Shown here in pieces: positions 38,030 to 57,859 of a stretch of DNA of 64,000 nucleotides. The DNA is from Nitrospiraceae bacterium (GTDB lineage: Bacteria > Nitrospirota > Nitrospiria > Nitrospirales > Nitrospiraceae). Where the stretch lies: assembly GCA_050246315.1 (NCBI GenBank), contig JBFWWG010000002.1, positions 524,811 through 588,810 on the forward strand. The letters are read 5' to 3'. How positions within the stretch are numbered: position 1 is the first letter of the stretch; each line of letters starts with the position of its first letter. The translations under genes and the position numbers were made by a program. The notes below the pieces were generated by a model. That model was not told where the DNA came from. It did no database searches and saw nothing but the letters and a program-made list of their open reading frames with translations.

Positions 38030-39670
38030 ATGAGAACGTCCGGTGTGCGCCCTTTCATCATTCTTATCCTTCCAGCAATCTTGGCCCTGACTCCACCCGC
38101 AGAGGCTGTCGAAGAGGGGCAACTCGTCAAGAAGGAGGGGAAGTGGGAATACTATTCGGGAGAAGACCCCGGTCTGAAATATCTCTACCTCAAGGGGATC
38201 ATCACTCAGGACGAATACGAAAAGGGTCTCAAGGTGCTCGAGACCAAAGAGCACGCGTCGAAACCCAATTTCAATATCGACGTCAATAACGGGCTGAACA
38301 TCCGTGTCGGGTCGAAATTCCTGCTGAAAATACGGCTCCTCACTCAAGTACGCTACACCTACAGCGATTACAATGAAGGCTGGGGCACAATCGGGGATTC
38401 ACGCAATCCAGAAATTCTCGGTGGCCAGGTGGAATATCGAGCCGTCAGGAAACAGAGCGATTCCAGTCAGTTCTCGGTTCCCCGCGCCCACCTGCAATTC
38501 ATGGGATATGCGTTCGATCCGGATTTCCGTTACAACATCTCCTGGGCGTTCGATCAAACCACCTGGGATCAGGAGGGGAGCAGTGGACGGGCCGGCCTCC
38601 TGGACGCTTATATTTCCTCCTGGCACATCCCCTGGGCAACCGTCCAGATCGGCCAGCAGCGTGTCTGGTTCAATCGCGCCTTGATCAGCTCCATGGCCAC
38701 CTCCACCTTTGCGGACAATCTGATCGTCCAAAATGCGTTTGCAGCCAACCTGCAAGGCAGCCGCGACATCGGGATCAGCGTGCTGACCGACGAAGACCGA
38801 TACAAGTTCAACTATGCCGTCGGGATCTGGGGAGGAGTCGGGGCCAACCTTGCACGAGAGGGCACAGCCGTCAGTCAAAACGTCCTCCCTCCAACCGGGA
38901 CACCGGGAGCGCCCCCAGCCACGATCACTCGCACCTACAACTACGGCACCCGCTTCATGACCGGTGAGCTCATGTATACCGCCCGGCTGCTCTACAAGAT
39001 CTCCGGCAATCCAGGGTATGGCCAAGGAGACATTCTCAACTCACGGATACCCCAGGCCGCCATCGCGTTCGGCTATGCGTATAACCCGGCTCAGAACTAT
39101 CTGAGTTCGACTCGTTCGGACATTGTCCAGCGCGCCTACCGCCAGCGCGTCGCCAAAGCCTATAACGGCCGACTCCTCGCCGGGGGCATTTACGATTTCC
39201 AAACGTATGATGTGGACTTTATTGCGAAGTACCAAGGCTGGTCGCTCCAGGCCGAAGGCTACTACCGCCACCAGCGCGTGCGCAGTACCGACAGCGGAAC
39301 CCAACCATACGATCTCAACACGATCCCGTCTCCCCAAATTCTTGGTCCACCGGTGAACCTGGGCCAGGCCTGGGGCTATTACGTGCAGGTTGGGAAATAT
39401 ATCATTCCCCGCAAACTTGAACTCGCCGTACGATATGGATTCATGGACCCGTCAACCGAGCAGACTCACGACCTGCTCAAGGAATTCGGCGCCGCCATCA
39501 ACTACAGTTTCGACGGGACCTACAACAACCGACTCGTTATCGACTATTCCAACATCACGATGGGAAGCGGCGGGCGGGCCCCTGATCGCTTTCCCTTTGA
39601 GAGCGAACCGGGCTTCGGACGCGATCTGATCGAAAATCGGATCAACGTGCAGTACCAATTCTATTTCTGA
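38030..39670 (+). CDS. Outer-membrane porin, OprO/OprP-like (copy A)
   Basis: Signal peptide; GIITQDEYE helical segment; alternating beta-strands; C-terminal VQYQFYF. Confidence 0.8.
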   Translation: MRTSGVRPFIILILPAILALTPPAEAVEEGQLVKKEGKWEYYSGEDPGLKYLYLKGIITQDEYEKGLKVLETKEHASKPNFNIDVNNGLNIRVGSKFLLKIRLLTQVRYTYSDYNEGWGTIGDSRNPEILGGQVEYRAVRKQSDSSQFSVPRAHLQFMGYAFDPDFRYNISWAFDQTTWDQEGSSGRAGLLDAYISSWHIPWATVQIGQQRVWFNRALISSMATSTFADNLIVQNAFAANLQGSRDIGISVLTDEDRYKFNYAVGIWGGVGANLAREGTAVSQNVLPPTGTPGAPPATITRTYNYGTRFMTGELMYTARLLYKISGNPGYGQGDILNSRIPQAAIAFGYAYNPAQNYLSSTRSDIVQRAYRQRVAKAYNGRLLAGGIYDFQTYDVDFIAKYQGWSLQAEGYYRHQRVRSTDSGTQPYDLNTIPSPQILGPPVNLGQAWGYYVQVGKYIIPRKLELAVRYGFMDPSTEQTHDLLKEFGAAINYSFDGTYNNRLVIDYSNITMGSGGRAPDRFPFESEPGFGRDLIENRINVQYQFYF

Positions 39671-39710
39671 GACGGCAACGGATCATTCCATCAGTACGAG
39701 GAGACCCATC

Positions 39711-40535
39711 ATGAGACGACTCCGTCTGCATTTTGGAACGTACCTGCTCTTCAGCCTGGTCGCCATCCTGATCCAGGTCACATCTCTGCCCGCCCAACAA
39801 CCGGAGCCCCTGACCATTGCGGCCGCAAACAGTCTTCGCGACGCATTCCGCGAGGTGCTTCCCCTCTTCGAATCACGACATCCGGATATCAGGGTGCGCG
39901 TGATCTACGGCCCTTCCCAGACACTCCGGAAGCAAATCGAGGAGGGGGCGCCGGTCGATGTGTTCCTTCCGTCGCTGTTCGAGGAGATCGAAGATCTGGA
40001 GAAGAAGAGCTTGCTGATCAACGGAACCAAATATGTCTATGGAGGGACCTCCTTGGTATTGGTGACCAATGCGGCGTTGCCGGCTCCCGTCGACTCGATC
40101 CAGGCCCTCAAGACCGTCTCGATACGGCGCTTGGCCGTCGGTGATCCCAAAACGTCCTCCGTCGGGAAAGTGGCGGCACAATTTCTCAAATATAGTCGGC
40201 TGGATGAACGGCTTCGGTCGCACTACGTGTATGGCGAACACTCCCGAGCGGTTCTCGACCTGGTAGCTCAAGGAGAGGCGGAGTTGGGGATTGTGTATCG
40301 AACCGATGCGGTCTCCAACACAAAAGTGCGGATCGTCGATACGGCCCCTCAGGACTCTCACACACCCATCCACTATGGAGTCGCGGTGGTCTGGTCCCAC
40401 AGGAATCTGGCCTGGGGCCAAGGATTCATTGAGTTCCTCTCGAAGGCTGAGGTCCAGGCCTCGTTGCAGAAGTACGGATTTGATCGTGTCTCGACCGACA
40501 CCGGCCTTGGCCAACGGAAGGAGGTCAAACCATGA
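39711..40535 (+). CDS. modA: ModA-family oxyanion-binding protein (paralog 1)
   Basis: LTIAAANSL, YGPSQTL, GAPVDVF, GIVYRTDA, LQKYGF motifs. Confidence 0.85.
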   Translation: MRRLRLHFGTYLLFSLVAILIQVTSLPAQQPEPLTIAAANSLRDAFREVLPLFESRHPDIRVRVIYGPSQTLRKQIEEGAPVDVFLPSLFEEIEDLEKKSLLINGTKYVYGGTSLVLVTNAALPAPVDSIQALKTVSIRRLAVGDPKTSSVGKVAAQFLKYSRLDERLRSHYVYGEHSRAVLDLVAQGEAELGIVYRTDAVSNTKVRIVDTAPQDSHTPIHYGVAVVWSHRNLAWGQGFIEFLSKAEVQASLQKYGFDRVSTDTGLGQRKEVKP

Positions 40536-41266
40536 ACCACATCAACAAGCGGAGGATGGAGAGCCGAGCCTGGCCGCTCCCAGCGGCTGCAGTCATGATC
40601 GGCCTGGCAGTCCTCCCCGGTTGCGCAGGTCAGCCTCCCACCAAGACTACCTCTGTGTTGGAAGCAGGGCGGAACGTGGTCCAGCTTGAGGCCGATCCGG
40701 AGTCCACCTCCAATTCTCATCCGGCCACCCTCACGTCCGCGGAGGTCGGAACGTTGCTGCGAGGAGTGCGCGCCTGGGAACGGCGAAACCTTTTCCATCG
40801 ACTCTACGCCGGGGAAGCTCCAAGGACCAGAGCCTTTCGGGACAATGAGATCGCCCTGTTGGCGCCCGCACTCTCCAAGGCCTTGGCGCAGGCCGATCCC
40901 TCCGAGCGTATCTATTTCCACCTGAGCCACGCCACCGAAGCCGGTGAGGAGGAGACGACCACCGGATGGATTGCTGTCCGAGAGCCGATTCTCTATTTGG
41001 CAGTGAGCGAGGTGCACGACCGACACGGCCCGGTTCCGGACATCAGCAAATACGATCGCCAGATGCCGAACGTTCCGGAGGTTTCCGCCGCATTCGACGT
41101 GATCTTCGAACCGGAGGAGTATCTCCAGGCAGTTGAGAGCAAGGGGCGCTTCTGGGCGACGGATCAACGCGAAGAGTTGCAAATCCGTTATCGAGAAGCA
41201 TTGGGGTCCATGCCGACACATCCCGGCCTACCAATGAACTCAGCGCCGACCCCGTCTCTACCTTGA
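40532..41266 (+). CDS. Uncharacterised lipoprotein (copy A)
   Basis: Lipobox LPGC; paralogous to 56209..56910. Confidence 0.8.
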   Translation: MNHINKRRMESRAWPLPAAAVMIGLAVLPGCAGQPPTKTTSVLEAGRNVVQLEADPESTSNSHPATLTSAEVGTLLRGVRAWERRNLFHRLYAGEAPRTRAFRDNEIALLAPALSKALAQADPSERIYFHLSHATEAGEEETTTGWIAVREPILYLAVSEVHDRHGPVPDISKYDRQMPNVPEVSAAFDVIFEPEEYLQAVESKGRFWATDQREELQIRYREALGSMPTHPGLPMNSAPTPSLP

Positions 41267-41615
41267 GTTGGAGACAAGGCATCATGGTGATGCTGGTCGT
41301 GGATGATGATACGGTTATCGCGTCTGAAGCGGCGTGCAGACGCTTTTGCCGGATCGGAGTGCTCGGCACTCGCAGGGTCACGGAGGAGCCCCTTCATGTC
41401 GTTAGGCTCACCCGCATGATTCATGAACGCTTCTGCTGCAATCGCGGATTCGCCACTGCAACAGCGCCAACATACAAGGTCGAAGGCACAGGGTCTCTCC
41501 GCCTCGATATGATCGAACGATGCACGATTGTGAGAAATGGTCGCCTTCCCTCAAGCATCGTGCCGCCCGATTCAACCGCTCGGCCCGGGTGGCACGGAGG
41601 AGACCCGAAGCATGA

Positions 41616-43241: not shown

Positions 43242-44509
43242 GGCGAAACCGACGAGGAATGTGCCGCTTGTTCCTTAGGCTCTGATTGTTGCGGTGACTC
43301 CGACTGATCAGGCGGTCTCAATTTGTCCTTTGACGCCACGGTTTCGGTATTGACGAGGTCGTAACCCGCTGCCGGCGTCACAAGGCGCACCTTGTCGCCT
43401 TCAAGCAACGCAGCGCTGGGATTGTTGATGATCCGGTCGCTTGCCGAAAGCCCCTCCGCGACTTCGACAAATTGATCCATGAGTTTGCTCACCGTGATGG
43501 ATTTCAAGTGAACTCTGTCGTCCTCCGTCACCACGGCCACTTGCGTGCCGTGCTCCTGGAACACCAACGCGGTGGACGGCATCGTGAATGCTTGTCGATC
43601 GACCGGAGCCGTGAGATGGACCTCGGCGTAAGAACCGGGCCAGAGCGTTCGGTCCTCATTGTCGATCGTAAAGACCGTCACCGCGGTGCGCGTACTTACA
43701 TCGAAGCCTTTTGAGACCGTCAGAAATTTTCCAATGAAATGACGTTTGGGCAATTGCGGCACGGTCACGTCGGCCGTCAGACCCGGCTGGAGGAAAGGCC
43801 CGAACGATTCCGGCACGTTGACGAAAAGACGCAATATGTGGACGTCGGCCACTGTAAACAGGTTGCTTTTCGCATTGGGGGTGTTGAGGTTACCTTCCTT
43901 GCTGACCAAGTCGCCGACATTAATGTTGCGCTGGGTCACCACGCCGTCGAAGGGGGCGACGATTGTTTTGAACCGTATGAACGCTTCGATATTCCTGACC
44001 TTTTGTTCTGCGGCCTTGACCTTCGCCGCTTCGGCTTTCAACTCCTGTTCCTTGACGGTGATCGATTGTTCGGAGACTGCGTGATTGGGACGGAGCGCGA
44101 TCCAGCGCTTGGCGGTCACCTCGGCAAGCTTATACCTGGCACGTTCCGTATCCAAATCTGCCTTGGACTGCGCATATTCGGCGTCGAGATCCGGCGCATT
44201 GATTTCGGCGAGAATGTCGCCTTTCTTCACATGGTCTCCGTAGTCCTTGTACCACATTTTTACATAGCCGGTGACGCGCGCGTACATGGGCGCCTCGTAC
44301 CAGCCCACGATATTGCCGGGAAGCGTAATGGTCTCGGTCGCCGGCACCGGCTTTGCGGAGACGACGGCCACGGTCGAAATGGCCTCTTCGAGTGTCTTCT
44401 CCCGCAGCAGCGCGGCGTCACCTCTACTCTCATAGACCCGATAGCCCACATAGCCCACGCACAACAAGACCGCTGAAAGGACCATGCCTCTTCCACCGAA
44501 TGTCTTCAT
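43238..44509 (-). CDS. RND periplasmic adaptor (MFP)
   Basis: N-terminal TM anchor; ARVTGYV, GDHVKKGD, APFDGVV, PGSY motifs. Confidence 0.93.
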   Translation of the reverse strand: MKTFGGRGMVLSAVLLCVGYVGYRVYESRGDAALLREKTLEEAISTVAVVSAKPVPATETITLPGNIVGWYEAPMYARVTGYVKMWYKDYGDHVKKGDILAEINAPDLDAEYAQSKADLDTERARYKLAEVTAKRWIALRPNHAVSEQSITVKEQELKAEAAKVKAAEQKVRNIEAFIRFKTIVAPFDGVVTQRNINVGDLVSKEGNLNTPNAKSNLFTVADVHILRLFVNVPESFGPFLQPGLTADVTVPQLPKRHFIGKFLTVSKGFDVSTRTAVTVFTIDNEDRTLWPGSYAEVHLTAPVDRQAFTMPSTALVFQEHGTQVAVVTEDDRVHLKSITVSKLMDQFVEVAEGLSASDRIINNPSAALLEGDKVRLVTPAAGYDLVNTETVASKDKLRPPDQSESPQQSEPKEQAAHSSSVSP

Positions 44510-46203
44510 GAGGTCTGTCCCTTTTGCCGGGCCATTCGCCGGCTGTAGATCATCGCGTATACGCAGGGCACGAAAAACAGCGTAAAGATGGTGGCCACGA
44601 GCAAGCCGCCGATGACGGCGCGACCCAACGGCGCATTCTGAGAATAGCCCGTCGCCATGGGAACCATTCCGATAATCATGGCCGAGGCGGTCATGAGTAC
44701 CGGGCGGAAGCGGGTCTTCCCGGCTTCGACCGCGGCCAAGAGCGCGTCGCCGTGCTCATGGAGCCGCTCACGAGCATACGACACAACGAGGATCGAATTG
44801 GCGGTCCCCGTGCCCATGGTCATGATGGCCCCCGTCAGTGCGGGCTCCGACAGACGCGTATGAGTCAGGAACAACGCCCACGCGATGCCCGCCAAGGCAC
44901 CGGGCAACGCCGTAATGATGATGAAGGGGTCGAGCCAGGATTGGAAATTGACGACGATCAGCAGATACACCAGCACGACCGCGGCGAGTAGGCCGAAGAT
45001 CAGCTCGAAATAGGCGTCGTGCATCAGCGACGCCTGGCCATGGATTTCGACCTCGGCGCTGCGCGGCTTCTCGTGCTCCATGTTGTGGACAATCTTCTCG
45101 ACATCCGTCAGCACACCGCCGAGATCGCGCCCTTCGGCGGAGACATAGACGTTGAACAGCGGCATGATGTTCCCGTGCGTGATCACGCCGGGCGTGCCCT
45201 CCGCCGACAACTCGGCCAAATTGCCGAGGAGTTGCACATCACGATCGTTCGAAGAACTACCCGCGGCATCGACCGGGACCGTTTTGATACTATTGACGCT
45301 GTTGATCTGCGACTGCGGCGTATACACATTGATCAGATACGACATGCCCGTACTCGGATCGAGCCAGTAAATTTGATCGACCTGTTGACTCCCGGCGGTC
45401 GTCATGAGCAGGTTGTCGGCCATGTTCTTCAGGGTCCGGTTGACTCCGAGTCCGAACGTGCGGTCGCCTTCCACCATCAGGGTCGGCGTGCGCATCGTCT
45501 GCTGAATCACCACATCCGCAGCGCCGGGAATCTCGCGAAACTTCCCAACTAATTTACGGGCAAACTCATAGTTGGGGTACATGTCCGGGCCGTTGACCTG
45601 CACGTCGATCGGCGCAGGGGCGCCGAAGTTGAGAATTTTTGCGGTCAGATCGGAAGGCTGGAACGTGAACTCCGTTCCTGGATAGCGTTCTCTCAAGCCC
45701 TTGCGGAGAATGCGCCGATAGTCCCACACCGGCGATTTCTCATCCTTCAACAGGATCGTCAGATCACAATCCTGGGACCCGATCGTCGGCGTCGGAATGA
45801 AGGCGAGGTTGTGCGGCCCGACCGGCAGACCGCAATTGCTGACAATGTTTTCGACCTGGCCCGGCAGCAACTGCTCGATGCTGTTGGAGACGAGCGTGGC
45901 AATGCGCCCCGACACTTCGATGCGCGTCCCAAGCGGCGCCCGCATATGCATCTGAATGACTCCGGACCTGATCTCGGGAAAGTAATCGCGTCCCAAGAAG
46001 AAAAAGAGGGACAGGGAAGCCACCGCGATGGCCAGCGAGATCGTGACGAAGGTCTTACGACGGGCGATCACCCGTTCGAGCAGCCTGCCATAGCCCTCGC
46101 GAAACCGCTCGAAGCGGCGCTCGAACCCCCTCTGAAAGCGGACGAACGGATTCCCCGACGGCTTGACGCCGTCATGTCCATCCTGGTTATGCGGCTGCGA
46201 CAT
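44506..46203 (-). CDS. RND permease, C-terminal half (TM7-12)
   Basis: NFQSWLDPFII, ANSILVV, RFRPVLMT, PLGRAVIGGL motifs. Confidence 0.85.
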   Translation of the reverse strand: MSQPHNQDGHDGVKPSGNPFVRFQRGFERRFERFREGYGRLLERVIARRKTFVTISLAIAVASLSLFFFLGRDYFPEIRSGVIQMHMRAPLGTRIEVSGRIATLVSNSIEQLLPGQVENIVSNCGLPVGPHNLAFIPTPTIGSQDCDLTILLKDEKSPVWDYRRILRKGLRERYPGTEFTFQPSDLTAKILNFGAPAPIDVQVNGPDMYPNYEFARKLVGKFREIPGAADVVIQQTMRTPTLMVEGDRTFGLGVNRTLKNMADNLLMTTAGSQQVDQIYWLDPSTGMSYLINVYTPQSQINSVNSIKTVPVDAAGSSSNDRDVQLLGNLAELSAEGTPGVITHGNIMPLFNVYVSAEGRDLGGVLTDVEKIVHNMEHEKPRSAEVEIHGQASLMHDAYFELIFGLLAAVVLVYLLIVVNFQSWLDPFIIITALPGALAGIAWALFLTHTRLSEPALTGAIMTMGTGTANSILVVSYARERLHEHGDALLAAVEAGKTRFRPVLMTASAMIIGMVPMATGYSQNAPLGRAVIGGLLVATIFTLFFVPCVYAMIYSRRMARQKGQTS

Positions 46204-47686
46204 GATGACTCTTCATCAGATATTTCGCCATGGTGGGCACCAACGTGCGCGACAGGATGAAGGAGGCGAGCATCGCGATGATGACCGCCTCCGCCATGGG
46301 CTTGAACAGGTAGCCGGCGACGCCGCCGAGCTCGAAGAGCGGGAGCCAGACGATCGCGATACACAAGGTGGCGACCAGCGTCGGGACGACGATCTCATTG
46401 GCGGCGTCGATGATGGCCTGCTCCAGCGGCTTGCCCATTTCGATATGGCGGTCGATATTCTCGATCATCACGGTCGCGTCATCGACCAGAATACCGACGG
46501 CCAGCGCCAACCCGCCCAAGGTCATCACGTTGATCGTCTCTCCGAGCCAATGCAAGCCGAGAATGGCGCTCAAGATCGACAGCGGGATCGAGGTCCATAC
46601 GATGACCGTGGCCCTCCATGAGCCGAGCAACAGCAGCACGATGAGGCCGACCAGGGCGCCGGCGGTCGCCATTTCATGCACGACATCCGAGATCGAATCC
46701 TTCACGAAGGTCGAGGCGTCGTCGAGAAGCCTGATCCTCACACCCTCCGGAGAGATTTGCTCGGCGCGCGGGATCATCTTCTTGATTCCATCGACCACGT
46801 CGAGGGTCGAGGCCTCCGTGCTCTTCATCGCGACGATGATGACGGTCTGCTTGCCCTTCACCAACACCGCGTTCTGTTGCACCCGGCCCATGAGGCGCAC
46901 GGTCGCGACGTCGCGCAGATAGATATACGCGTTGCCTTCCCGTTTGATCGGGATATTCGCGAAATCCTCGATCTTCAACGGTGACGCGTTCGTCAGGACG
47001 ATCCAGTCGGTCGGCTTGATCTTGATGTCGCCGGACGGCAACACGAGGTATTGCTGCATGAGAACATCGTGAATGTCCGAGGGAGTGAGATGGCGGGCGA
47101 GCATCTTCTGTTGATCGAGGTTGACCATGACCTGCATATCCTGGCCCCCGTAGGGATGCGGCAGGACGATCCCCGGCACCGTCACGAGCAAGGGGCGGAT
47201 GCGCATGTAGGCGAGGTTGTAGAGCTCCGCGGGCGTCATGCTGTCGGAGCTGATTTCGAGCATGGCCACCGGTATCGACGAGGGTGCCAGGCGCATGACC
47301 ATGGGCGGGGAAATATCGGGCGGCAGCGCCTTGACGACGTTCTGCGCAATACCCACGATATCTGCTTCGGCACGGCCTACGTCGACGCCGTCCTGCAGGA
47401 AAATATTGGTGATGCTGCTCCCGTAGTAGGAATGACTATGAATGTACTTAATGCCCTCCACGGTCGAGGTCAGGAAGCGTTCGAATAGATACGTGATGCG
47501 CCCTTCCACCTGCTGCGGCAACAGACCGGAGTAGATCCAGACCACGGAGGTAACGGGAATCGTAATATTCGGGAAGACGTCCGTCGGCATGTGGAGAATG
47601 GTAAGACTCCCCATCGCCACGATCAGGATCGACATGACGACGAAGGTATACGGTCTGCGCAGGGCGATGAGGACAATTTGGTTCAT
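46187..47686 (-). CDS. RND permease, N-terminal half (TM1-6)
   Basis: ALRRPYTF, DVFPNI, GILVDDATVMIENI, LFKPMA motifs; stop overlaps the start of the C-terminal half. Confidence 0.85.
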   Translation of the reverse strand: MNQIVLIALRRPYTFVVMSILIVAMGSLTILHMPTDVFPNITIPVTSVVWIYSGLLPQQVEGRITYLFERFLTSTVEGIKYIHSHSYYGSSITNIFLQDGVDVGRAEADIVGIAQNVVKALPPDISPPMVMRLAPSSIPVAMLEISSDSMTPAELYNLAYMRIRPLLVTVPGIVLPHPYGGQDMQVMVNLDQQKMLARHLTPSDIHDVLMQQYLVLPSGDIKIKPTDWIVLTNASPLKIEDFANIPIKREGNAYIYLRDVATVRLMGRVQQNAVLVKGKQTVIIVAMKSTEASTLDVVDGIKKMIPRAEQISPEGVRIRLLDDASTFVKDSISDVVHEMATAGALVGLIVLLLLGSWRATVIVWTSIPLSILSAILGLHWLGETINVMTLGGLALAVGILVDDATVMIENIDRHIEMGKPLEQAIIDAANEIVVPTLVATLCIAIVWLPLFELGGVAGYLFKPMAEAVIIAMLASFILSRTLVPTMAKYLMKSHHVAAA

Positions 47687-47836
47687 AGGCGAACTCTGCC
47701 AACCACGGGTGCCACAACAGTTGGATGTTTGATCATGACCTTAATGGATTTCAATGATTAACGGATGTCTCTGATTCGAAGTCTTGGGACAGGGCCGACC
47801 ATCCAAATACGAGAATATATAGCAATGCCTGCACAG

Positions 47837-47963: not shown

Positions 47964-48157
47964 TGCAACGCCGACTCGGTTCGGACCGGACAACTTAACA
48001 ACTCTCCATGGTGCATCCGTTCACAGAGCGCGCCGTGCGGAATCACACGATTTTGAGGGTCGTGCGGGCGAGGGGGTCGTATAAGCCTCAGTGAAGAACT
48101 CGTTGGAGATGCGATGGTTGGGCTGGTTTTCTCTGATTGATCCCTTCGAGACAATCG

Positions 48158-49199: not shown

Positions 49200-50285
49200 T
49201 CAGCGCGAGATCAGGTGCACCGCGCCGGCCTTGATAGCGGCCTTCACATAGATGCCCGGTTGCAGTCCGAGGTCAAGCAAGGAAGAGCGGGTGACCAGGG
49301 CCGTCACGAGGAATCCACAATCGACCCGGACCTTGGCCAAGGCGCCGACCGATTGGATATCGGTGATGCACCCGAAAAGATGGTTTCTGGCGCTCGTCAC
49401 CCCCGACTCAGCCGGTTCCAACACCACATCCTCAGCCCTGATGCAGACATACACGTCCTGCGCGATGCCTTCCGAACCGACGGCGGCCAGCAGTAATCCA
49501 CCCACCTCCACGGTCACCAGGCCGTCAGCCTCCCCGATCACGCGTCCCTGCAGCACGGTTTCAACCCCGACCACCTGAGCCACCTCCGCATCCAACGGAC
49601 GGCTGAACACCTCCTGAGGTGTCCCGGTTTGCACGACGCGACCATGGTTGATGACAACCATGGTATCGCCGAGTTCCAAGGCTTCCGCCCAATCGTGCGT
49701 GACGACGAGTGTTGGAATTGCCAAGCGCTTGAGCAGTCCGCGCAATTCACCGCACAAACGGGCGCGTGTCGGCACATCCAATGCGGAGAGCGGCTCATCT
49801 AATAGCAACAGACGGGGCCGTCGCACAATCGCCCGGGCCAGGGCGACCCGTTGCTGCTGTCCGCCGGACAATTGGTTGGGACGGCGCTCGGCCAAGTCTT
49901 CGATGTGCATAAGGCGCAGTACATCAGTGATGCGTTGTACCCGTTCTGTCTTCGGGAGGTCGCCGAGGCCGAACGCGAGGTTCCCGGCCACGGTGCAATG
50001 GGGAAACAGCGCATAGTCCTGGGACATGTAGCCCAACGCACGTGCCTGCGGAGAACGGACAATACCGTCTCGGACGTCGAGCCACCGTTCGCCGTCGAAT
50101 CGAATCGTCCCTTCTTCCGGCCGCTCCAATCCGGCCAAGCATCTGAGCACCGTGGTTTTTCCGGACCCGGATGGACCAAACAGAATCGTCACCGATGGAG
50201 GGTCCAGTGGAACCCGGAGCCGAGCTTCTACCGTCAGCTTGCTGGGAAAGGTCTTCCGGAAATCGAGGCTTATTTCTGCGGCCAT
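49200..50285 (-). CDS. modC: Molybdate ABC transporter ATPase with C-terminal TOBE domains
   Basis: GPSGSGKT, LSGGQQQR, LLDEP motifs; TSARN...VTRSSLLDLGL TOBE domain. Confidence 0.93.
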   Translation of the reverse strand: MAAEISLDFRKTFPSKLTVEARLRVPLDPPSVTILFGPSGSGKTTVLRCLAGLERPEEGTIRFDGERWLDVRDGIVRSPQARALGYMSQDYALFPHCTVAGNLAFGLGDLPKTERVQRITDVLRLMHIEDLAERRPNQLSGGQQQRVALARAIVRRPRLLLLDEPLSALDVPTRARLCGELRGLLKRLAIPTLVVTHDWAEALELGDTMVVINHGRVVQTGTPQEVFSRPLDAEVAQVVGVETVLQGRVIGEADGLVTVEVGGLLLAAVGSEGIAQDVYVCIRAEDVVLEPAESGVTSARNHLFGCITDIQSVGALAKVRVDCGFLVTALVTRSSLLDLGLQPGIYVKAAIKAGAVHLISR

Positions 50286-50944
50286 GCCGCCCACATGGTG
50301 CGATTGAGGCCGTATACGCCGAGTAGTACGAGATACGAGATGGCCAGCAGGAGCGCGGACGTCTTGCCGGCAACCGCATAGTTCAAAGATTGGACTTCAT
50401 CATAGATTTCGATGGAGACCGTGCGCGTGACCCCTTCGATATTGCCGCCTACCATCAGCACCACCCCGAATTCTCCAAGCGTATGGGCGAAACTGAGCAC
50501 GAAGCCGGTAATGATCCCCGCAGCCGACAGGGGGATGATCAATTTCAGAAACGTGCCGAGCTTGGACACACCCAACGTCCAGGACATTTCGACCAAACGC
50601 CGATCGACCTGTTGAAAGGCCGAGGCAAACGGCTGCACGGCAAACGGCAAACTATACAAGACCGAGGCAATCAAGAGACCTTCGAACGTAAAGGGCAAGG
50701 GATGCCCCACGATCTCCGTGTACCAGCGGCCTACCGGACTGTGAGGGCCGATGGCGACCAGAACATAAAATCCGATGACGGTCGGCGGCAGCACCAACGG
50801 GAGGGCCACCACCGACTCGACCAATACCTTCCAGCGTTGCCGCGAATAGGTGAGCCAGTAGGCAATCGGCAGGCCGACCGCCAACAGAATCACGGCGGTC
50901 AGCAGCGCCAACTCAAGCGTGAGCAGAATCGCCGTCCAGTTCAC
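50270..50944 (-). CDS. modB: Molybdate ABC transporter permease
   Basis: LPLVLPPTVIGF, FAHTLGEFG motifs; GTG start after GGAGG. Confidence 0.94.
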   Translation of the reverse strand: MNWTAILLTLELALLTAVILLAVGLPIAYWLTYSRQRWKVLVESVVALPLVLPPTVIGFYVLVAIGPHSPVGRWYTEIVGHPLPFTFEGLLIASVLYSLPFAVQPFASAFQQVDRRLVEMSWTLGVSKLGTFLKLIIPLSAAGIITGFVLSFAHTLGEFGVVLMVGGNIEGVTRTVSIEIYDEVQSLNYAVAGKTSALLLAISYLVLLGVYGLNRTMWAAWPQK

Positions 50945-51028
50945 GTATGCGAGACCTCCTCCGTCGGCTGACGCGCCCGCCCCGGTGTATCCTGGCAAGC
51001 AGGCGCGTCGGAGCGCCCTCGGAAGACC

Positions 51029-51232
51029 TTATTTGCCGACCAGCACTTCGGTCGCCTTGATGGCGACGGTCACTTGATCATTGACCTTGAGTCCCATGCT
51101 TTTCACGGAGCCTTCCGTAATGGCGGCGACGAATTCCAGATTTCCCACCTTCACGGCTACTTCGGCCATGGCCTGACCCTCGGTAATTTTCGTGACCGTC
51201 CCCTGAAATTGATTGCGCGCGCTGAGCTTCAT
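51029..51232 (-). CDS. mop: Mop/TOBE molybdate-binding protein (molbindin)
   Basis: MKLSARNQFQG...IT..SV..MGL...IKATEV signature. Confidence 0.93.
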   Translation of the reverse strand: MKLSARNQFQGTVTKITEGQAMAEVAVKVGNLEFVAAITEGSVKSMGLKVNDQVTVAIKATEVLVGK

Positions 51233-51675
51233 CTATTCCCTCCTTGGTATTGGTGAATGAGTTGTGAACTGGACGATCCTCTCGCTCCCGCTCCTGATCT
51301 CGACCGCTCATCAATAGGGTCGTGAGCCCCACCTGAGGCAGCCTTGCATTCGAACTGTACGCCCCATTTCCGACCGATGCCTTCGTCCTCGGTGCCTTCC
51401 TTGGTACCGGAAACGCTCGTATACCCGCGCGCCTCCCCTTCTCGAATGACACGATAGCCGGCCGGGCATTTCCGCATCATGAGCGCATCGGCCTGCCTGC
51501 GGTAGGGAGACATCAGGTGCCCCCCGCGGTCCTCCTTGTAGGAATAGGAGACCAATCCTCCCGACGGCGTTTCCCGCACCATCTGAACCGCGTCTGAGCA
51601 GCCGGTAGCCGCGCCCCAGAGCCAGAGCAGCACCAGACCCTGACAGACCGGCGCGCTCGTCACCCGCCCGTTCAT
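51229..51675 (-). CDS. Small uncharacterised lipoprotein
   Basis: Lipobox ATGC; KCPAGYRVIREGE...W.VQFEC Cys pair. Confidence 0.7.
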   Translation of the reverse strand: MNGRVTSAPVCQGLVLLWLWGAATGCSDAVQMVRETPSGGLVSYSYKEDRGGHLMSPYRRQADALMMRKCPAGYRVIREGEARGYTSVSGTKEGTEDEGIGRKWGVQFECKAASGGAHDPIDERSRSGAGARGSSSSQLIHQYQGGNR

Positions 51676-51739
51676 GACATGCCGCTCCTCCAGACCATCG
51701 CATTCGTTGCACGTGACCATGCCACCGTACGCAAGCCGT

Positions 51740-52543
51740 TTACGATGGAAGGACGAAGCCGTAGCGTGTCATGATCGCCCGCCCTTCCTCCGTTTGGAGG
51801 AACGCGAGAAATGACTTGGCACGATCCTGATTCGACGAATTCTTAAGAATCACGACCCCATGTTCCAAGGCCGGGTGGGCGTCCGCTGGAATCTCCCAAT
51901 ATTTCCCTATCCTCTTCATCGTGGGAGTCATGGCCAGTGACAGCGCGATCAACCCGATATCCGAGGCACCGGATTCGATGAACTGTCCCGCCTGCGAAAT
52001 ATTCTCCCCGAACACCAACTTGCCCTTGACCCGATCGTGCACCTTGAAATGTTCCATGGCCGCGACGGCGGCACGGCCGTAGGGTGCATGTTTGGGATTC
52101 GCAATCGCGACCTTCTTGACCAAGGGATCGAGCAGGACGTCCATCCCCCGCTCCTCCACCGGAAGCGGAGATTTTGCCAAGGTCCAGAGCACGAGGCGAC
52201 CGACGGCATACTTGGACAGCGATCCGGGCACGGTCAGCTCCGCGTCCTCGAGCTTCTTCGGATAGGCCATATCGGCGGAGAAGAAGACATCGAACGGAGC
52301 CCCGTTCTGAATCTGCGAGTAGAAATTTCCGGATGAACCGAGCGTCAACTTGACCCGTTCACCGGTCTTCTTTTCATACTCGCCGACCAGCTCCTTGAAG
52401 GCGAAATTCAGACTTGATGCCGCGGCAATCGTCAGATCGCCGGCCTGCGCCGAGGAAGGACTTCCCAGCGCCGAAAGCAGCGCGATGACGATCAGCACGC
52501 GGCCGATATTCCAAATCGAACTCCTGTTCCCTGCCACCTTCAT
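51740..52543 (-). CDS. modA: Molybdate-binding protein ModA (canonical, paralog 3)
   Basis: AAASSL, GSSG, GAPFDVFFSAD, IANPKHAPYG, GENISQ motifs. Confidence 0.93.
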   Translation of the reverse strand: MKVAGNRSSIWNIGRVLIVIALLSALGSPSSAQAGDLTIAAASSLNFAFKELVGEYEKKTGERVKLTLGSSGNFYSQIQNGAPFDVFFSADMAYPKKLEDAELTVPGSLSKYAVGRLVLWTLAKSPLPVEERGMDVLLDPLVKKVAIANPKHAPYGRAAVAAMEHFKVHDRVKGKLVFGENISQAGQFIESGASDIGLIALSLAMTPTMKRIGKYWEIPADAHPALEHGVVILKNSSNQDRAKSFLAFLQTEEGRAIMTRYGFVLPS

Positions 52544-52688
52544 GAATTCCTCCATCTCACACTCGATCGTGAGCCGAACCCTATCACCGTCTTCACCCTT
52601 CACTCAACCATCCTTACGACGAGAGGTGATACCGTCAACCGCCCTGCTCCGCCGCACCTCGAGTGACTGGATCATGCTTTGCCGCCTG

Positions 52689-53363
52689 TCACGGACGCGC
52701 CGGCTGATCCTCCGGCTGCTGCGGCAATGGCGGATCGATCACCTGGATGCGAATGATGTTGGACACGTTCCGCGCGCCGGACTTGTCCCCTGGATTGATG
52801 ATTCTCGCAAACCCCGGAGCATCGAGCAGCACGCCGTCCTTCGCATACGCGACGATCACTTGATGTTGTCCTCCGATCGCCGGGACCAACTCCCCCATGG
52901 AGTAGGCTTGCTGATAACAATCGCTGCCCGTAATCAAGATGATCTTCCGGTTGACATCATTCCTGACCCCCGAGTTCAGCAATACTTCCGCCTGCTGAAG
53001 CAAATCATACAAGAGCACGCCGGTCCATTCACCCGTTTCAAACCCGGTCGGGCTTGCTCCCGATCGATAAAAGGCCCACACCGTCGTTTGGGTCGGCTGC
53101 CCTCGTAGTCTAGCCAGATCGAGGGTCATAGGGTTCTTCACCTTACCACCCAAGCGAAACTGCGTAGACGGCCCGCCCGGACAATTGAGGAAATGCTTCC
53201 GCTGTTCTTCCGGAGACAGATTAGCCGGAACCGGTTGATGGTCGTCGGCCGCCTCGACGCCATCCAACACCTGGGCCCGGCCCGGGGTCGGCCATTGTCC
53301 GAGAGAAAGGACCGCTCCCAGTAGAATGCCCAGCAGCACCGCTCGCGACGCACAATCCCTCAT
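52689..53363 (-). CDS. Exported molybdopterin-oxidoreductase-like (sulfite oxidase fold) domain protein
   Basis: Sec-type signal; GKVKNP..L, WTGVLL.DLL, GSDCY, VAYAKDG, ARII.PGD, RNV motifs. Confidence 0.75.
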   Translation of the reverse strand: MRDCASRAVLLGILLGAVLSLGQWPTPGRAQVLDGVEAADDHQPVPANLSPEEQRKHFLNCPGGPSTQFRLGGKVKNPMTLDLARLRGQPTQTTVWAFYRSGASPTGFETGEWTGVLLYDLLQQAEVLLNSGVRNDVNRKIILITGSDCYQQAYSMGELVPAIGGQHQVIVAYAKDGVLLDAPGFARIINPGDKSGARNVSNIIRIQVIDPPLPQQPEDQPARP

Positions 53364-53482: not shown

Positions 53483-53509
53483 GGGGGCCTCCCTGGACAC
53501 CGAACGCCG

Positions 53510-54328
53510 TTAGCTTGACGCCTTCGTAATCGAGTGGCCGAGATGCAACAACCGGCACGGAACCGGAGCCATCGTGCGTTCAGCGCGCTTGATCCAGGCC
53601 TCCCAGGCGCCGACCTGGACATCGATCCGTTCGCCCGGCGCCCATTGAACCGACGAGCAGGGCGAGGGAGCAATCTGAGCTGAGATGGAGACCTCTCCGA
53701 GATCCAGCGATAACAACTGCCCTTCGGAGGTCTGCCGGATATCGGTCAATCGTGCCCGCAACCAGATGCGCGCATCACGATCGGCATGCCACGTCCAACG
53801 ACCACGGATGGAGTCATTCGATGGCTCAGGCCGTTCCACGTGCAGCGTCACACGGGAGGGATCCACCACCACATTGACCGTATCCCAAGTTTGCAAGCCG
53901 GCGGTCTGACTGCCCTGGGGCTGTACACTCTTCAAGATCACCTCGTCTCCATGAAGCTTGACAGTGACAACCGGGAGGCTGCCCTCTCGTTGAACCAGCA
54001 CCACGCGTCCGATCCATCGATTCCAGCGTCGCCGACCCCGGCGGAACAAACCAGCCTCCAGACAAACCGCCTCCGCTGGAATCCGAGCCGTGACCTTCTG
54101 GCCGGCCAGGAACGACAGGTCGCCTGAGGTCTGTTCCGTCCATCGCACCCGCAGGCGCGTGCGATGGCCCATGACCAATCGCACACTGAACCTGGTCAGC
54201 CCTCGATGAACCGCCTCAATCACCCCCGGAAGCAGGTTGTGCCCGCTCGATAGGACTACCTCGCCTCCCGGTGGACCTGAGACGGGTCCGTCCCTGTCAG
54301 GCAGCATCGGTTGCCTCATCCAGTCCAT
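53510..54328 (-). CDS. Protein with three degenerate tandem TOBE-like domains
   Basis: SGHNLLPGVI...GQKVTARI; RWNRWIGRV...WDTVNVVV; RIWLRARL...GERIDVQV; GGAGG RBS. Confidence 0.65.
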   Translation of the reverse strand: MDWMRQPMLPDRDGPVSGPPGGEVVLSSGHNLLPGVIEAVHRGLTRFSVRLVMGHRTRLRVRWTEQTSGDLSFLAGQKVTARIPAEAVCLEAGLFRRGRRRWNRWIGRVVLVQREGSLPVVTVKLHGDEVILKSVQPQGSQTAGLQTWDTVNVVVDPSRVTLHVERPEPSNDSIRGRWTWHADRDARIWLRARLTDIRQTSEGQLLSLDLGEVSISAQIAPSPCSSVQWAPGERIDVQVGAWEAWIKRAERTMAPVPCRLLHLGHSITKASS

Positions 54329-54393
54329 GGTCTGCCTCCCTTCAGTGGTCATGATGACGATGGCCGCCGGCATTCGGCCGGCCGGCATCGTGA

Positions 54394-56154
54394 TCAGAAG
54401 AATATTTGATACTGCACCCGAATCAGGTTCTCGATGAGCGTGCCTCCGCGGGCATCAAGGGGAACCGTCCCGGATTGAGGAGGAAGGGGTGCGCTGCGAC
54501 CGATCGCATAGCCGTCGGTGCCCATCGCGATGTTGCTGTAGGTCACCATGATCTGATGGTCGTAGGTGCCGTTCAGAAACCAGTTGAGCGAGAGGTCCAC
54601 CTGCTTGACCAGATCTCCGCCCGACCGAGTGTCGGGATCCCAATAGGCATAGCGGCCGGCGATCTCCAGATGACGAGGGATGACGTAGTAGCCGGTTTGC
54701 ACATACCATCCGGTCGCATTGCCGAGCAGCCCCGGAGCCGAGGCCAGACAGCCCGTGTTCGGATCGTTGTTCGCCACCGGCCGCATGCAGGGCAAGCCCT
54801 TCTCGTGCCTGGTGATGTTCTTAAAGTAGTATTCCGCCTGCAGCGAGAAGCCTCGATACTTGAACACGCCGTCGAGCCCCCAGGTGAGGTAGTCCACTAT
54901 CCCCCACCCGAGCTGACGGGCGTTGCCGTATGCGGCAATCTGCCTGCGAAAATTGAGATTGGCCAGGTCCGTGCCGATGTAGGAACTGTTGGAACTGGCA
55001 TTGACCGCCGGGTTATAGGCGATCCCGCCGCCCACGGCCATTTGAGGCGTCTCCGAATAAACGATGTCACCCTCTCCATATCCTGGGCGGCCCATGATGT
55101 TCCAATTCAAGCGCGCCGTGTACATCAGCTGGTTGACGTCGTTCCGTAGGTTGGCGTTGATGTTGCGTTGAGGACCCGGACAGCCGCTCGGCGAGGGCAA
55201 TGGATTCTGGCCGGTCGTGCCCCCCGGACAACCATCCGTCGGCTGCTCGCTGAAGAACCCGCCGAAGCGGTTGAAACTCGGTCCGGCCCCGTTGAAGATT
55301 CCCAAGTAATAATTGACCGGGTAAATTTCTTCATCGTTCATAATCGTGATGCCGATGTCCCGCCGATCCAGTCCGCTGGCCGTGAAGGCATCCATCACCA
55401 AGGCGCGCTCGGCGAACTGCATCGAGGCCGTCGAATTGATCTGCGCCCGGTTGGAGAAGACCTTGTACTGGCCGAACATGACGTTGAACAGCGGGTAGTG
55501 GGTGCTCTGGAAGGACAAGTCCAGGAGCCGGACCGATCCCGGGGTTTGGGAATTCTCCGCCGTCTCCCCGGAAAGCTGTATGAAGTATTTGAAGTCGGGA
55601 TTGAACAGGTGCCCCATGAAATAGAGTCGGGCGCGCCGCACATTGAACGAGGACCCTGTTTCATCCGACCGGTTGGCTCGATAGTCCCCGAACACGCCGA
55701 GCAGCTCTGGAAAATTCTTGGCATCCCCGGGATCTCGATAGGCGTCATTCCGAAAGCGCTGGGTAAAGCGTAACTGCGCGCGAAACCGGATTTTCAAGTA
55801 GAACGCGTTGTCGTTCATTGAAAAATTGAACCCGCGGTCGTACCAGCTCCTGGAACTGGGTGAAAGGAGATAGGACCGTTCTTCCGATTCTTTCTTGACC
55901 TTCTCGTATTCCTCCTCCGTGATGAGCCCGCTCTTCAGCGCCCTCTCCAATAGCAGCTTGGTGGCTGGATCGGTGCTTTCCACGAAGACATACTTGCCGT
56001 CCTTCTCGATCAACTTCCCCGCATCCGCGGCATGGGTCTCGGAACCGACGGCAAGTGCCACGGCTACGACAAACAGACCGAGACCAAGCCGTCGTCGTTC
56101 CCGAGGGAAAATCAGGCCGACCGGCCGATCGACCAATCGTGAGATCATCGTCAT
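54394..56154 (-). CDS. Outer-membrane porin, OprO/OprP-like (copy B)
   Basis: Signal peptide; GLITEEEYE; FNVRRARL; GQYKV; C-terminal VQYQIFF; paralog of 38030..39670. Confidence 0.82.
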   Translation of the reverse strand: MTMISRLVDRPVGLIFPRERRRLGLGLFVVAVALAVGSETHAADAGKLIEKDGKYVFVESTDPATKLLLERALKSGLITEEEYEKVKKESEERSYLLSPSSRSWYDRGFNFSMNDNAFYLKIRFRAQLRFTQRFRNDAYRDPGDAKNFPELLGVFGDYRANRSDETGSSFNVRRARLYFMGHLFNPDFKYFIQLSGETAENSQTPGSVRLLDLSFQSTHYPLFNVMFGQYKVFSNRAQINSTASMQFAERALVMDAFTASGLDRRDIGITIMNDEEIYPVNYYLGIFNGAGPSFNRFGGFFSEQPTDGCPGGTTGQNPLPSPSGCPGPQRNINANLRNDVNQLMYTARLNWNIMGRPGYGEGDIVYSETPQMAVGGGIAYNPAVNASSNSSYIGTDLANLNFRRQIAAYGNARQLGWGIVDYLTWGLDGVFKYRGFSLQAEYYFKNITRHEKGLPCMRPVANNDPNTGCLASAPGLLGNATGWYVQTGYYVIPRHLEIAGRYAYWDPDTRSGGDLVKQVDLSLNWFLNGTYDHQIMVTYSNIAMGTDGYAIGRSAPLPPQSGTVPLDARGGTLIENLIRVQYQIFF

Positions 56155-56208
56155 GTAAGCCTCTCCTGTGTTGGTCACACCATGGATGAGCTGGAGACCA
56201 ATGACTGC

Positions 56209-56910
56209 TTATTTGGTGGAACCAGGAGAGGACCTGGTCGCGCCCTGTCCTGCTTCCCCTGATTGGAGGAACTTGCGAAGCTCCACCGCTCGGATTTCTT
56301 TGGGGTCGGTGACCCAGAAACGTCCCGGGTCGAAATACAGGATGTAGTCCTTCGCCGGTGGAGGCGGCGTGGGATAGTTGCGGTAGTAGAGATCGGCCTT
56401 CCTGACCGGGACTTGGGTGTGATACTGCTCGACCGTGAGGTACAGGTACGGTTCCCTGACCGCTACCCAACCGGACAGCAGATCTCTTCCATACTCCGGA
56501 TTGTTGCCGGGGCCGAGCAGGGCGAAGTGCGCCCGTTCATCGGGTCCGATCCGTTGGAACGCTTCCACGAGATACGGAGCAACCAGCTCGATCTCGTCCT
56601 CTCGAAAGACCGGTATCGGAGGGGCCTCTTCGGTGAACCACCGCAGCGGCAGACGTTGCTGCACGCGCAAGGAAAATCCCTTCAACAACGCGGCGACTTC
56701 GTCCGACGTCAAGGTGACCGGGTGGGTGAAGGACGGTTCATCGATGGTTCGCTGGGCCGTCACCACGACTCGCGGCCCCTCGTAGATCGTCTGCGTGGTA
56801 TACGGAACCCGCGCACAGCCGGCCGCCGCGACGGCGATCATGGCCGCCGCCATCGCGAAGCGCGTCCTCGATCGAGGCATCTCATCCTGCGCAACCGTTC
56901 TCCTCTTCAT
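56209..56910 (-). CDS. Uncharacterised lipoprotein (copy B)
   Basis: Lipobox AAGC; HPVTLT..EV..LL.G, F...EI, GW.AVREP.LYL motifs shared with 40532..41266. Confidence 0.8.
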   Translation of the reverse strand: MKRRTVAQDEMPRSRTRFAMAAAMIAVAAAGCARVPYTTQTIYEGPRVVVTAQRTIDEPSFTHPVTLTSDEVAALLKGFSLRVQQRLPLRWFTEEAPPIPVFREDEIELVAPYLVEAFQRIGPDERAHFALLGPGNNPEYGRDLLSGWVAVREPYLYLTVEQYHTQVPVRKADLYYRNYPTPPPPAKDYILYFDPGRFWVTDPKEIRAVELRKFLQSGEAGQGATRSSPGSTK

Positions 56911-57004
56911 CGGTCCCCCTCATCTGTTCGAATGGTTGTCGTATTTAATAAAATAAAAGACTGTTATACTTGACACCCTAAGCACAAAAAATACGAGGCT
57001 CCGA

Positions 57005-57859
57005 TTAACGAACGACGGGCCGGGCGTAATTGGCTCCCGGCACGCCATAGCCCGCGCTCCGAACGATGCGTTGCGCCTCGGGCGTTTGAATGAACGCCAA
57101 AAAATCTTCGCAGAGCGATCGATTCGGGCAGTACCGCTCCATCGCCATCGAGTGCACCGTCGGCTCATACCCACGCTCTGCCACCGCCACGATCCGAACC
57201 CGTTCCCGTTCCCTCACCGCCTCATGCTCGAAAATGATGCCCAGGTCGGCCTCCCCGCCGAGGACATGGTCAAGGACCCCTCGAGAGTCGGTCGCGACGT
57301 CCAGCCGGCCTCGCAACTTCCCCTTCAGATCGAACTCTTGCAACACCTCCTCCGTCTGTCTCCCCAGATTGGTCCGTTGCGGTTCCGCAATCGCGAGCCT
57401 GAGCCCTTCGCTTACCCGTCCGAGTTCTTCAAACGATTCCGGAGCATCCGCCACCGCTTCAGGCGCGACCAAGACCAGACGTTCCTTGGCATAGGCCCGT
57501 TTGGTGCCGGGCAGGACGTAGTACTTCATCTCCAGTCGGGTGATCAGCTCGTCGCCGCCTGGCGCCACCAGATGAATCGGGCCCCTCCCGATGAAAAATT
57601 CTCCGGTCATGCTGTTCTCCATCCCGGCAATCGTCCGCCTGAGATCCAACCCATCATCGAAGTACAACATGACTTTGACATGCTGATGTTTGGCTTCATA
57701 GGCCTCGGCAAGCGCCTTCAACGGCACGCCCAGGCTCGGCGACCCGGCGATCACGAGCACCTCTCGGGATTGGCCGGCATGGGAGGGCACGGTAAGGCCC
57801 CCTACGGCGGCCATGGCGCACAGGTACAGCAACGGACGCATCATCCGTATGATTCTCAT
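57005..57859 (-). CDS. Highly divergent ModA-like substrate-binding protein (paralog 4)
   Basis: Signal peptide; AGSPSL, YAKERLVLV, LAIAEP..T.LG, GEADLGII, FLAFIQTPEAQRIV..GY motifs. Confidence 0.75.
   Translation of the reverse strand: MRIIRMMRPLLYLCAMAAVGGLTVPSHAGQSREVLVIAGSPSLGVPLKALAEAYEAKHQHVKVMLYFDDGLDLRRTIAGMENSMTGEFFIGRGPIHLVAPGGDELITRLEMKYYVLPGTKRAYAKERLVLVAPEAVADAPESFEELGRVSEGLRLAIAEPQRTNLGRQTEEVLQEFDLKGKLRGRLDVATDSRGVLDHVLGGEADLGIIFEHEAVRERERVRIVAVAERGYEPTVHSMAMERYCPNRSLCEDFLAFIQTPEAQRIVRSAGYGVPGANYARPVVR

Follow-up and report, generated by a model that had tools for sequence, protein, structure and literature searches.

Two paralogous sets of three genes, each encoding an outer-membrane porin, a ModA-type periplasmic binding protein and a lipoprotein, lie in a 64,000-nucleotide stretch of DNA (the window) from a Nitrospiraceae bacterium (assembly GCA_050246315.1, contig JBFWWG010000002.1, positions 524,811 to 588,810). 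The two lipoproteins, A and B, have no match in Pfam or NCBIfam. With a little better than even confidence, we take these sets, modules A and B, to be envelope uptake modules in which the lipoprotein docks on its own porin, and the lipoprotein family to be a general accessory of specific porins that feed ATP-binding cassette (ABC) importers, since the arrangement recurs for phosphate and urea.

Pairwise BLASTP aligned the two porins at 37% identity over 567 columns (E 5e-104), the two lipoproteins at 37% over 200 columns (E 6e-32) and the two binding proteins at 28% over 272 columns (E 3e-24); judged by these alignments, the triads are paralogous, with a similarity far beyond chance. The original prediction, made from the letters of the DNA and its open reading frames (ORFs), had described two such modules, and the ORF listing and profile scans recovered all six genes at or near where it had placed them (Table 1). 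Close homologues carry names that assign the source of the DNA to Nitrospira/Nitrospiraceae. The motifs it had picked out as shared are all present in the alignments (GIITQDEYEK/GLITEEEYEK, LMYTARL, PGYGxGDI, YNPA and LIENxIxVQYQ in the porins; HPxTLTSxEV, FRxxEIxLxAPxL and GWxAVREPxLYL in the lipoproteins). It was also right that gene order differs, being porin, ModA, lipoprotein in module A and ModA, lipoprotein, porin in module B, with ModA followed by the lipoprotein common to both, and that module A follows a yezD-type gene (PF10055) and module B a regulator with XRE-type helix-turn-helix (HTH) and PBP_like (PF12727) domains.

Porin A has an aromatic C-terminus (...QYQFYF) and no direct Pfam match at E <= 0.01, the Porin_O_P model not being reached, and in a genome-wide scan with that model porin B alone scored above the cut-off. 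The open frame of porin B begins at a GTG (56178), but the ATG at 56154 is the likelier start because an AGGAG box stands in front of it. Binding protein A retains the serine of AAANSL, the PSQ serine and the tyrosine of VYRTDA, while the divergent copy in module B has a 12-residue insertion, lacks the PSQ serine and has phenylalanine for the tyrosine of the VYxxDA motif; we presume that these motif residues correspond to those of E. coli ModA.

The lipoprotein family has so far been found only in Nitrospirales. A profile search of 1.84 billion representatives returned 833 clusters at E <= 0.001 (346 at E <= 1e-10), and every source name and Atlas taxon of a family member was Nitrospira or Nitrospirota, these names and taxa being the sole basis for the range outside Nitrospirota. 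Among 250 sampled Nitrospirota genomes, the family occurs in 39 of 39 from the window's own family and 17 of 17 from a second family of Nitrospirales (1 to 9 matches per positive genome), and in none of the remaining 194. Across 55 members the sole invariant column is the lipobox cysteine, Cys31 of lipoprotein A. In both A and B this cysteine is directly followed by alanine, which under the E. coli sorting rule directs a lipoprotein to the outer membrane, and both would thus be expected there. An AlphaFold2 (AF2) model of lipoprotein A (predicted local distance difference test, pLDDT, 83.5; predicted template modeling score, pTM, 0.76) gave no match at E <= 0.001 in a Foldseek search of the PDB, and a VIA-align comparison with 48161 chains reached no more than Z 4.1 (levivirus coat proteins, TANGO2), below any meaningful level. 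LptE, RcsF, MlaA, BamB-E and SusD were not listed in these fold searches, although such a listing does not exclude them. With neither a Pfam name nor a solved fold match, the structure of the family would be new.

To follow the modules through related genomes we scanned one genome per species with an alignment that reaches A-type orthologues only, its most conserved block, the contact loop described below, serving as search pattern. The scan recovered A-type lipoprotein orthologues at 80 loci, every one of them in a Nitrospira-type record. Porin A and ModA A lie directly upstream of lipoprotein A in 62 of the 64 loci with at least 2.7 kb of upstream sequence, and in many relatives porin A is itself preceded by a yezD orthologue. 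The exceptions are L044, where no porin was detected, and L063 (8538-9445), where yezD is followed directly by lipoprotein A, porin A and ModA A being gone in what amounts to a natural deletion that keeps the lipoprotein. The regulator of module B has an orthologue in 54 of the 80 loci, and the full B triad is present in 37 of the 42 in which the regulator is followed by 4.5 kb or more of sequence (three have none of the triad and two have part). Co-occurrence across genomes, which the original prediction had proposed as a check, is therefore high for both modules.

The same prediction placed the modules in facing orientation, and this holds in the window, but it is not the usual layout. Where a locus includes lipoprotein A together with the regulator (54 loci), the modules are back-to-back and divergent in 52 cases and convergent in the other two, L037 and L077, which share the layout of the window; the convergent layout thus represents a derived rearrangement. 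In the window, a resistance-nodulation-division (RND) efflux operon and a fourth ModA-type gene separate lipoprotein A from the end of the module B operon where modC lies. In L011, the closest relative, lipoprotein A is followed by the same genes, and the stretch ends in modB, before module B is reached.

We examined physical association by predicting a three-chain complex of mature porin A, mature ModA A and, as the scored partner, residues 31-235 of lipoprotein A. The lipoprotein scored an ipSAE (interaction prediction score from aligned errors) of 0.65 (runs 0.65, 0.62 and 0.67), and three controls, two with the partner replaced and one with the porin replaced, all scored 0.00. In calibration, 116 of 157 solved complexes attained this mark, as did 2 of 215 mismatched pairs; these counts apply only roughly here, as the job, unlike its calibration, combined three chains with unpaired custom alignments. 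At least 37% of contacts were common to the runs and partner pLDDT was at least 72. The porin was modeled as a monomer, and OprP-type porins are trimers. The predicted interface fits the earlier suggestion that the lipoprotein acts as a lid or hand-off factor. It is unlikely to have been memorized from a solved relative, since the porin profile had no match at E <= 1 among PDB sequences, and so no solved OprP/OprO relative by sequence, and the lipoprotein had no fold match.

The confident contacts join lipoprotein A residues 166-184 (GPVPDISKYDRQMPNVPEV) to porin A residues 84-87, 100, 156-169, 198-224, 255-256, 329-336, 461 and 495-498, which are spread over the whole barrel sequence. Outer-membrane barrels have alternating strands and a periplasmic C-terminus, and, with the last strands judged by eye from the sequence, the strand ends on the periplasmic side include residues 461 and 495-498; the loop would therefore sit at the periplasmic mouth. 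No block of the A-type family is more conserved than loop 166-184 (majority identity 0.87, versus 0.76 overall), and no part of the lone AF2 model is less confident, with residues 172-175 below pLDDT 50. The loop carries the motif Y-x-R-x-x-P-x-x-P, in which R176 is found in 40 of 55 sequences, P179 in 34 and P182 in 30. The motif is retained in lipoprotein B, and its core is common to lipoproteins A, B and C of the window's genome (for C, see below).

A different partner for the lipoprotein has to be weighed here. It could act on the binding protein, tethering or concentrating the ModA-type protein (PstS in the phosphate loci described below) at a membrane, with the porin merely co-regulated. 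This would suit the order of binding protein then lipoprotein, which is kept in both modules while the porin moves, the overlap of the ModA A stop codon with the lipoprotein A start codon (ATGA), and the position of PstS directly upstream on the same strand in L115, L118 and L128. We consider it unlikely, as every confident lipoprotein contact was to the porin and replacing the porin brought the score to 0.00; no confident lipoprotein-ModA contact was named in the three-chain prediction, which is not in itself evidence against such binding. Moreover, two further family members, E and F, are divergent from the porin and urtA genes rather than 3' of a binding protein, and the copies linked to TatC have no binding protein nearby.

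These further copies bear on docking at the porin as a general role. The window's genome (G000) encodes seven lipoprotein-family ORFs, the weakest at C2:217367-218365, and five of the seven lie within 1.3 kb of a porin-like gene. Lipoprotein D (C2:61005-61931) shares an operon with genes for a 562-aa Porin_O_P porin, an Slp lipoprotein and an orf163 paralogue (Table 1), and this operon adjoins genes for a PstS-type binding protein and Ppx. The phosphate porin, at 25% identity, belongs with the module porins to one OprP-related type. The phosphate-type pairing was also found in L091-L093, L095, L115, L118, L121 and L128, with PstS, PhoU, PstB or PhoB-type genes alongside in the five of these that were scanned (L091, L115, L118, L121 and L128). 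For lipoproteins E and F (C5:269872-272027), the distances to the gene for a 463-aa protein, which precedes urtA, are 304 and 1281 bases.

Named members of this 463-aa family (L010:10331-11722, the same as G000 C5:272331-273722) are all hypothetical proteins of the Nitrospira group. The family shows no detectable sequence similarity to the other porins: hhalign against the module porins gave a probability of 0.7%, BLASTP against a BBP2 porin found nothing, and its profile had no match at E <= 1 among sequences of solved structures. It is the model of the protein that marks it as porin-like, with 16 long strands (pLDDT 64, pTM 0.65) and a resemblance to solved porins, namely DcaP (E 2.5e-16) and OprP (E 6.6e-10), and also the OmpF type. 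It is probably the outer-membrane urea or amide channel of these bacteria.

The lipoprotein family is thus not specific to molybdate or to oxyanions. The claim that it is a dedicated partner of an oxyanion porin survives in so far as the lipoprotein travels with porin and ModA and a complex is predicted; the dedication to oxyanions does not stand, as paralogues also lie beside the porin-like barrel upstream of the urea ABC transporter.

We next widened the neighbor survey to 38 further stretches from 17 genomes, in which porin-like ORFs were recognized by profiles derived from the porins of the modules, those of the phosphate loci and the 463-aa family, together with one Pfam BBP2 porin. A porin-like ORF lay no more than 1.3 kb from 31 of 51 lipoprotein-family genes (18 genomes, with that of the window), in a non-random sample picked among the 150 listed of 302 matches; in one of these loci, L112, the neighbor is the BBP2 porin. 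Adjacency could in principle be inherited synteny within one order with no functional link, the role of the lipoprotein being unrelated; all of the evidence does come from a single order in which gene order is shared by descent, and 20 of the 51 copies are located elsewhere. We regard this as quite improbable, as the association recurs with mutually dissimilar porins (the OprP-related type including the phosphate porin, the 463-aa family and the BBP2 porin of L112) in varied gene orders and on varied strands, for which descent alone is hard to invoke, and as the complex prediction passes its controls.

The non-random sampling and the set-up of the complex prediction, with a job type unlike that of its calibration and a monomeric porin, both weigh against docking on the porin as a general role, and so do several further observations. 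The 20 copies located elsewhere have no recognized porin neighbor, and 10 of these follow TatC and/or beta-propeller and cyclophilin genes. Copy C of the window's genome (C2:612665-613471), which follows TatC, beta-propeller and cyclophilin isomerase genes with no porin nearby, retains the loop motif, as do the representatives P0134 and P0140 aligned with it. Interface positions on the porin are not more conserved than the rest (0.66 versus 0.62), with 1210 of 10000 random sets as good. Finally, on the porin side, all four porin-like ORFs that the profiles found in the window's genome have a lipoprotein-family neighbor, a count that is partly circular because the profiles derive from lipoprotein-adjacent porins, and contig C1, with two BBP2 porins and one weak Porin_4 match, has no family member. 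The other porin-less copies comprise two beside NUDIX and HhH-GPD genes, one after a copper P-type ATPase gene, three in urea-transport contexts beside 427-618-aa proteins of unclear type, and four without an assigned context.

The TatC-linked copies raise a further alternative, that family members are envelope-biogenesis or folding helpers, such as barrel assembly factors, with the porin-adjacent copies needed only while porin is being made. The TatC-linked type was sampled in both families of Nitrospirales, where it ends a row of TsaB, RimI, TatC, beta-propeller and cyclophilin isomerase genes (L008:8665-11937 and nine further loci), the lipoprotein family is present in all 56 sampled genomes of the two families, and the predicted contact with the barrel rim would suit an assembly factor too. 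However, only 4 of at least 7 porins in the window's genome have a partner, and the partnered porins belong to binding-protein-dependent nutrient systems, which points to transport; the fold searches revealed no likeness to known Bam or Lpt lipoproteins, although this is not conclusive. We therefore think a role in assembly unlikely.

Returning to the lipoprotein as a porin accessory, we envisage that it would be anchored in the inner leaflet of the outer membrane, dock on the periplasmic rim of its own porin through loop 166-184, and then either cap or gate the channel or hand solute to the neighboring binding protein. The same arrangement would serve phosphate through an OprP-type porin and PstS, and urea through the porin-like barrel and UrtA. 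A stronger version, which we put forward tentatively and at well below even odds, is that Nitrospirales have a lipoprotein class of their own, with its own fold, whose loop plugs the periplasmic mouth of substrate-specific porins and frees solute to the cognate binding protein. Such a class would make a gated relay from the outer membrane to the ABC importer, with duplicates for molybdate, phosphate, urea and a sulfur oxyanion. If this were true, "passive" specific porins could be coupled to periplasmic binding proteins.

With regard to substrate, the module B operon continues from the porin through genes for a TOBE protein, a molybdopterin-oxidoreductase-domain protein, canonical ModA, a small lipoprotein, ModB and ModC. 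As this operon ends in modABC, includes TOBE and molybdenum-enzyme-type genes and is headed by the PBP_like regulator, the natural reading of its gene content is that module B would serve the uptake of molybdate (or tungstate). Among 63 relatives with at least 3 kb of sequence downstream of module A, 43 have same-strand sulfur-uptake genes after it, of which 24 are of SsuABC type, 12 of Sbp-CysTW(A) type and 7 a sulfate-binding protein only, one example of each kind (L015, L017 and L027) having been annotated against NCBIfam; in the window, the RND operon stands in place of these genes. Because it starts with a DUF2292 gene, is followed in relatives by sulfur-uptake genes and keeps the ModA-type motifs, module A is best read as a putative group-VI oxyanion module under sulfur-linked control. 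The view that the two copies have specialized is thus consistent with their different regulatory and metabolic settings, with only module B being tied to molybdate.

The yezD-type gene scored under the cut-off of the narrower OscA equivalog NF033785 (45.8 bits, cut-off 85), and a full-text literature search on OscA, sulfur starvation and DUF2292 gave, going by titles, nothing on DUF2292 function. RNA-library contigs from four metatranscriptome or transcriptome runs (three studies) match parts of module A with 0-3 differences, and two of them span the ModA A/lipoprotein A junction, although such contigs neither show a transcript nor exclude DNA carry-over; module B was barely covered and these data are uninformative for it.

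Amongst described systems, the modules resemble OprP/OprO with PstS-PstCAB of the Pseudomonas Pho regulon, the phosphate and polyphosphate porins. Porin B reaches the Porin_O_P cut-off, genes for a high-affinity binding protein and an oxyanion ABC importer accompany that of the porin, and the window's genome has a true phosphate version with the same lipoprotein family. Porin A, by contrast, falls below the Pfam model, both module porins carry an N-terminal extension, and neither has a solved relative by sequence. We know of no lipoprotein partner described for OprP or OprO, and a full-text literature search, judged by titles and listings, found no porin-lipoprotein pair of this kind for molybdate, OprP or ModA/tungstate. 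In Geobacter, the OprP-like porin ExtI of ExtHIJKL is encoded with the rhodanese-type lipoprotein ExtH in a selenite/tellurite context. That system shares with ours an OprP-like porin encoded beside a lipoprotein in an oxyanion context, but the match of porin B to NF040900 (porin_ExtI) is weak and far under the cut-off (29.8 bits, cut-off 150), the modules lack cytochromes and a rhodanese, and their lipoproteins are of an unrelated family.

Binding of a lipoprotein to an outer-membrane barrel is known, as in the LptD-LptE plug-and-barrel and in RcsF or MlaA with OmpC/OmpF. There, as proposed here, an outer-membrane lipoprotein sits on a beta-barrel, but those systems handle lipopolysaccharide, stress sensing or lipid asymmetry rather than nutrient uptake, the searches showed no sequence or fold likeness between them and the Nitrospirales lipoprotein (no Foldseek match at E <= 0.001 and a best Z of 4.1, as above), and the contact predicted here involves a loop rather than a whole domain, set against the turns of many strands of the barrel. 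In SusC-SusD, a TonB-dependent transporter has a lipoprotein lid; there too a nutrient-specific outer-membrane channel stands beside a dedicated lipoprotein gene and the pair is duplicated for many substrates. SusD, however, is surface-exposed, caps the outer face of a 22-strand TonB-dependent barrel and has no homology to our family, whereas the barrel here is porin-like and TonB-independent and the contact would be periplasmic. To our knowledge, none of LptE, RcsF, MlaA and SusD serves a porin that feeds an ABC importer. Pairing a channel of the outer membrane with a lipoprotein of its own is thus known in itself; what appears to be new is that the channel is a porin feeding an ABC importer.

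Nitrospira requires molybdenum for nitrite oxidoreductase and lives where trace oxyanions are scarce, and the outer-membrane passage of molybdate, sulfate, phosphate and urea has been largely unstudied in these key nitrifiers. If our reading is true, the lipoprotein would add a component to the textbook route from porin to binding protein to ABC importer and provide a testable gated or coupled porin. Genes of the lipoprotein family could also flag oxyanion-acquisition loci in metagenomes.

Table 1. Genes of modules A and B and associated genes in the window (positions in the window; cut-offs in bits).
Feature	Position	Strand	Size	Remarks
yezD-type small protein (DUF2292)	37705-37899	+		first gene of module A; PF10055 56.8 bits (cut-off 22)
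Porin A	38030-39670	+	546 aa	OprP-related outer-membrane barrel; N-terminal extension of ~70 aa past the signal peptide
ModA-type periplasmic binding protein A	39711-40535	+	274 aa	TIGR01256 164.9 bits (cut-off 62.5); PF13531 171 bits
Lipoprotein A	40532-41266	+	244 aa	lipobox LPGC, Cys31; uncharacterized Nitrospirales family
Fourth ModA-type binding protein	48243-49058	+		TIGR01256 123.7 bits; 43% identical to module A copy (tblastn 42.6%)
modC with TOBE domain	49200-50294	-		PF00528/PF00005/PF03459 scan of modBC pair
modB	50270-50998	-		PF00528/PF00005/PF03459 scan of modBC pair
orf163, small lipoprotein of a second unknown family	51229-51720	-		lipobox ATGC
Canonical ModA of modABC transporter	51740-52603	-		TIGR01256 212.1 bits
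Molybdopterin-oxidoreductase-domain protein	52689-53363	-	224 aa	PF00174 37.4 bits
TOBE (Mop) domain protein	53510-54388	-	292 aa	same operon as module B; PF03459 27.5 bits; TIGR00638 33 bits
Porin B	54394-56154	-	586 aa	from ATG 56154; PF07396 Porin_O_P 51.8 bits (cut-off 20.9)
Lipoprotein B	56209-56910	-	233 aa	lipobox AAGC; paralogue of lipoprotein A
Divergent ModA-like binding protein B	57005-57859	-	284 aa	TIGR01256 76.8 bits (cut-off 62.5); PF13531 107 bits
XRE-HTH + PBP_like regulator	57913-59208	-		heads module B operon; PF12727 209 bits; PF01381 39.7 bits

Several minor features of the window were also recorded. At 41407-41453, just 3' of lipoprotein A, contigs of all four RNA-library runs stop or turn into unlike sequence; these breaks fit a strain-variable junction at the edge of a rearrangement in which the RND operon took the place of sulfur-uptake genes. 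Shortly upstream of module A, close to where the rearranged block has its other edge, are a tRNA gene (35780-35852, +) and a gene for a LexA-like repressor with HTH and S24 peptidase domains (36516-37058, -). The tRNA was the one match in an Rfam scan of the window, which found no molybdenum cofactor (Moco) or other riboswitch.

Within the efflux operon that separates the modules, the AcrB-type RND transporter (44506-47686, -) is encoded by two ORFs that overlap by 17 bases and cover profile positions 4-494 and 499-1021; the same split is present in L011 (100% identity for the N-terminal and 98% for the C-terminal ORF), and it could be either a naturally split pump or a shared frameshift. In at least five loci (L008, L108, L110, L114 and L125) the TatC-linked lipoprotein copy is convergent with a gene for a TolC-type outer-membrane factor belonging to an RND pump. 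The same pump lies beside the family member of L122, and lipoprotein A is placed likewise in the window. The fourth ModA-type gene stands isolated between the RND operon and modC, beside an unknown 137-aa ORF (47741-48154), and in one RNA-library run a contig of depth 180 lies over it.

The N-terminal extension is conserved in both porins (38030-38330 and 55870-56154) and contains a motif weakly resembling SHOCT (in porin B, PF09851 at E 0.0047), and the Pfam-bearing Atlas clusters nearest to the lipoprotein are SHOCT proteins from other phyla (scores 0.87 and 0.76; template modeling (TM) score 0.47/0.57); all of these SHOCT-like matches are under the level of a reliable lead. The orf163 family has no Pfam or NCBIfam match and has the consensus VRETPxGGxVSYS...KCPxGxRxIxEG...WGxQFxC. 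One copy lies between modA and modB, a paralogue with 42% identity lies beside lipoprotein D in the phosphate porin operon (L009:8922-9242, -), and a third is found at G000 C1:117016-117300.

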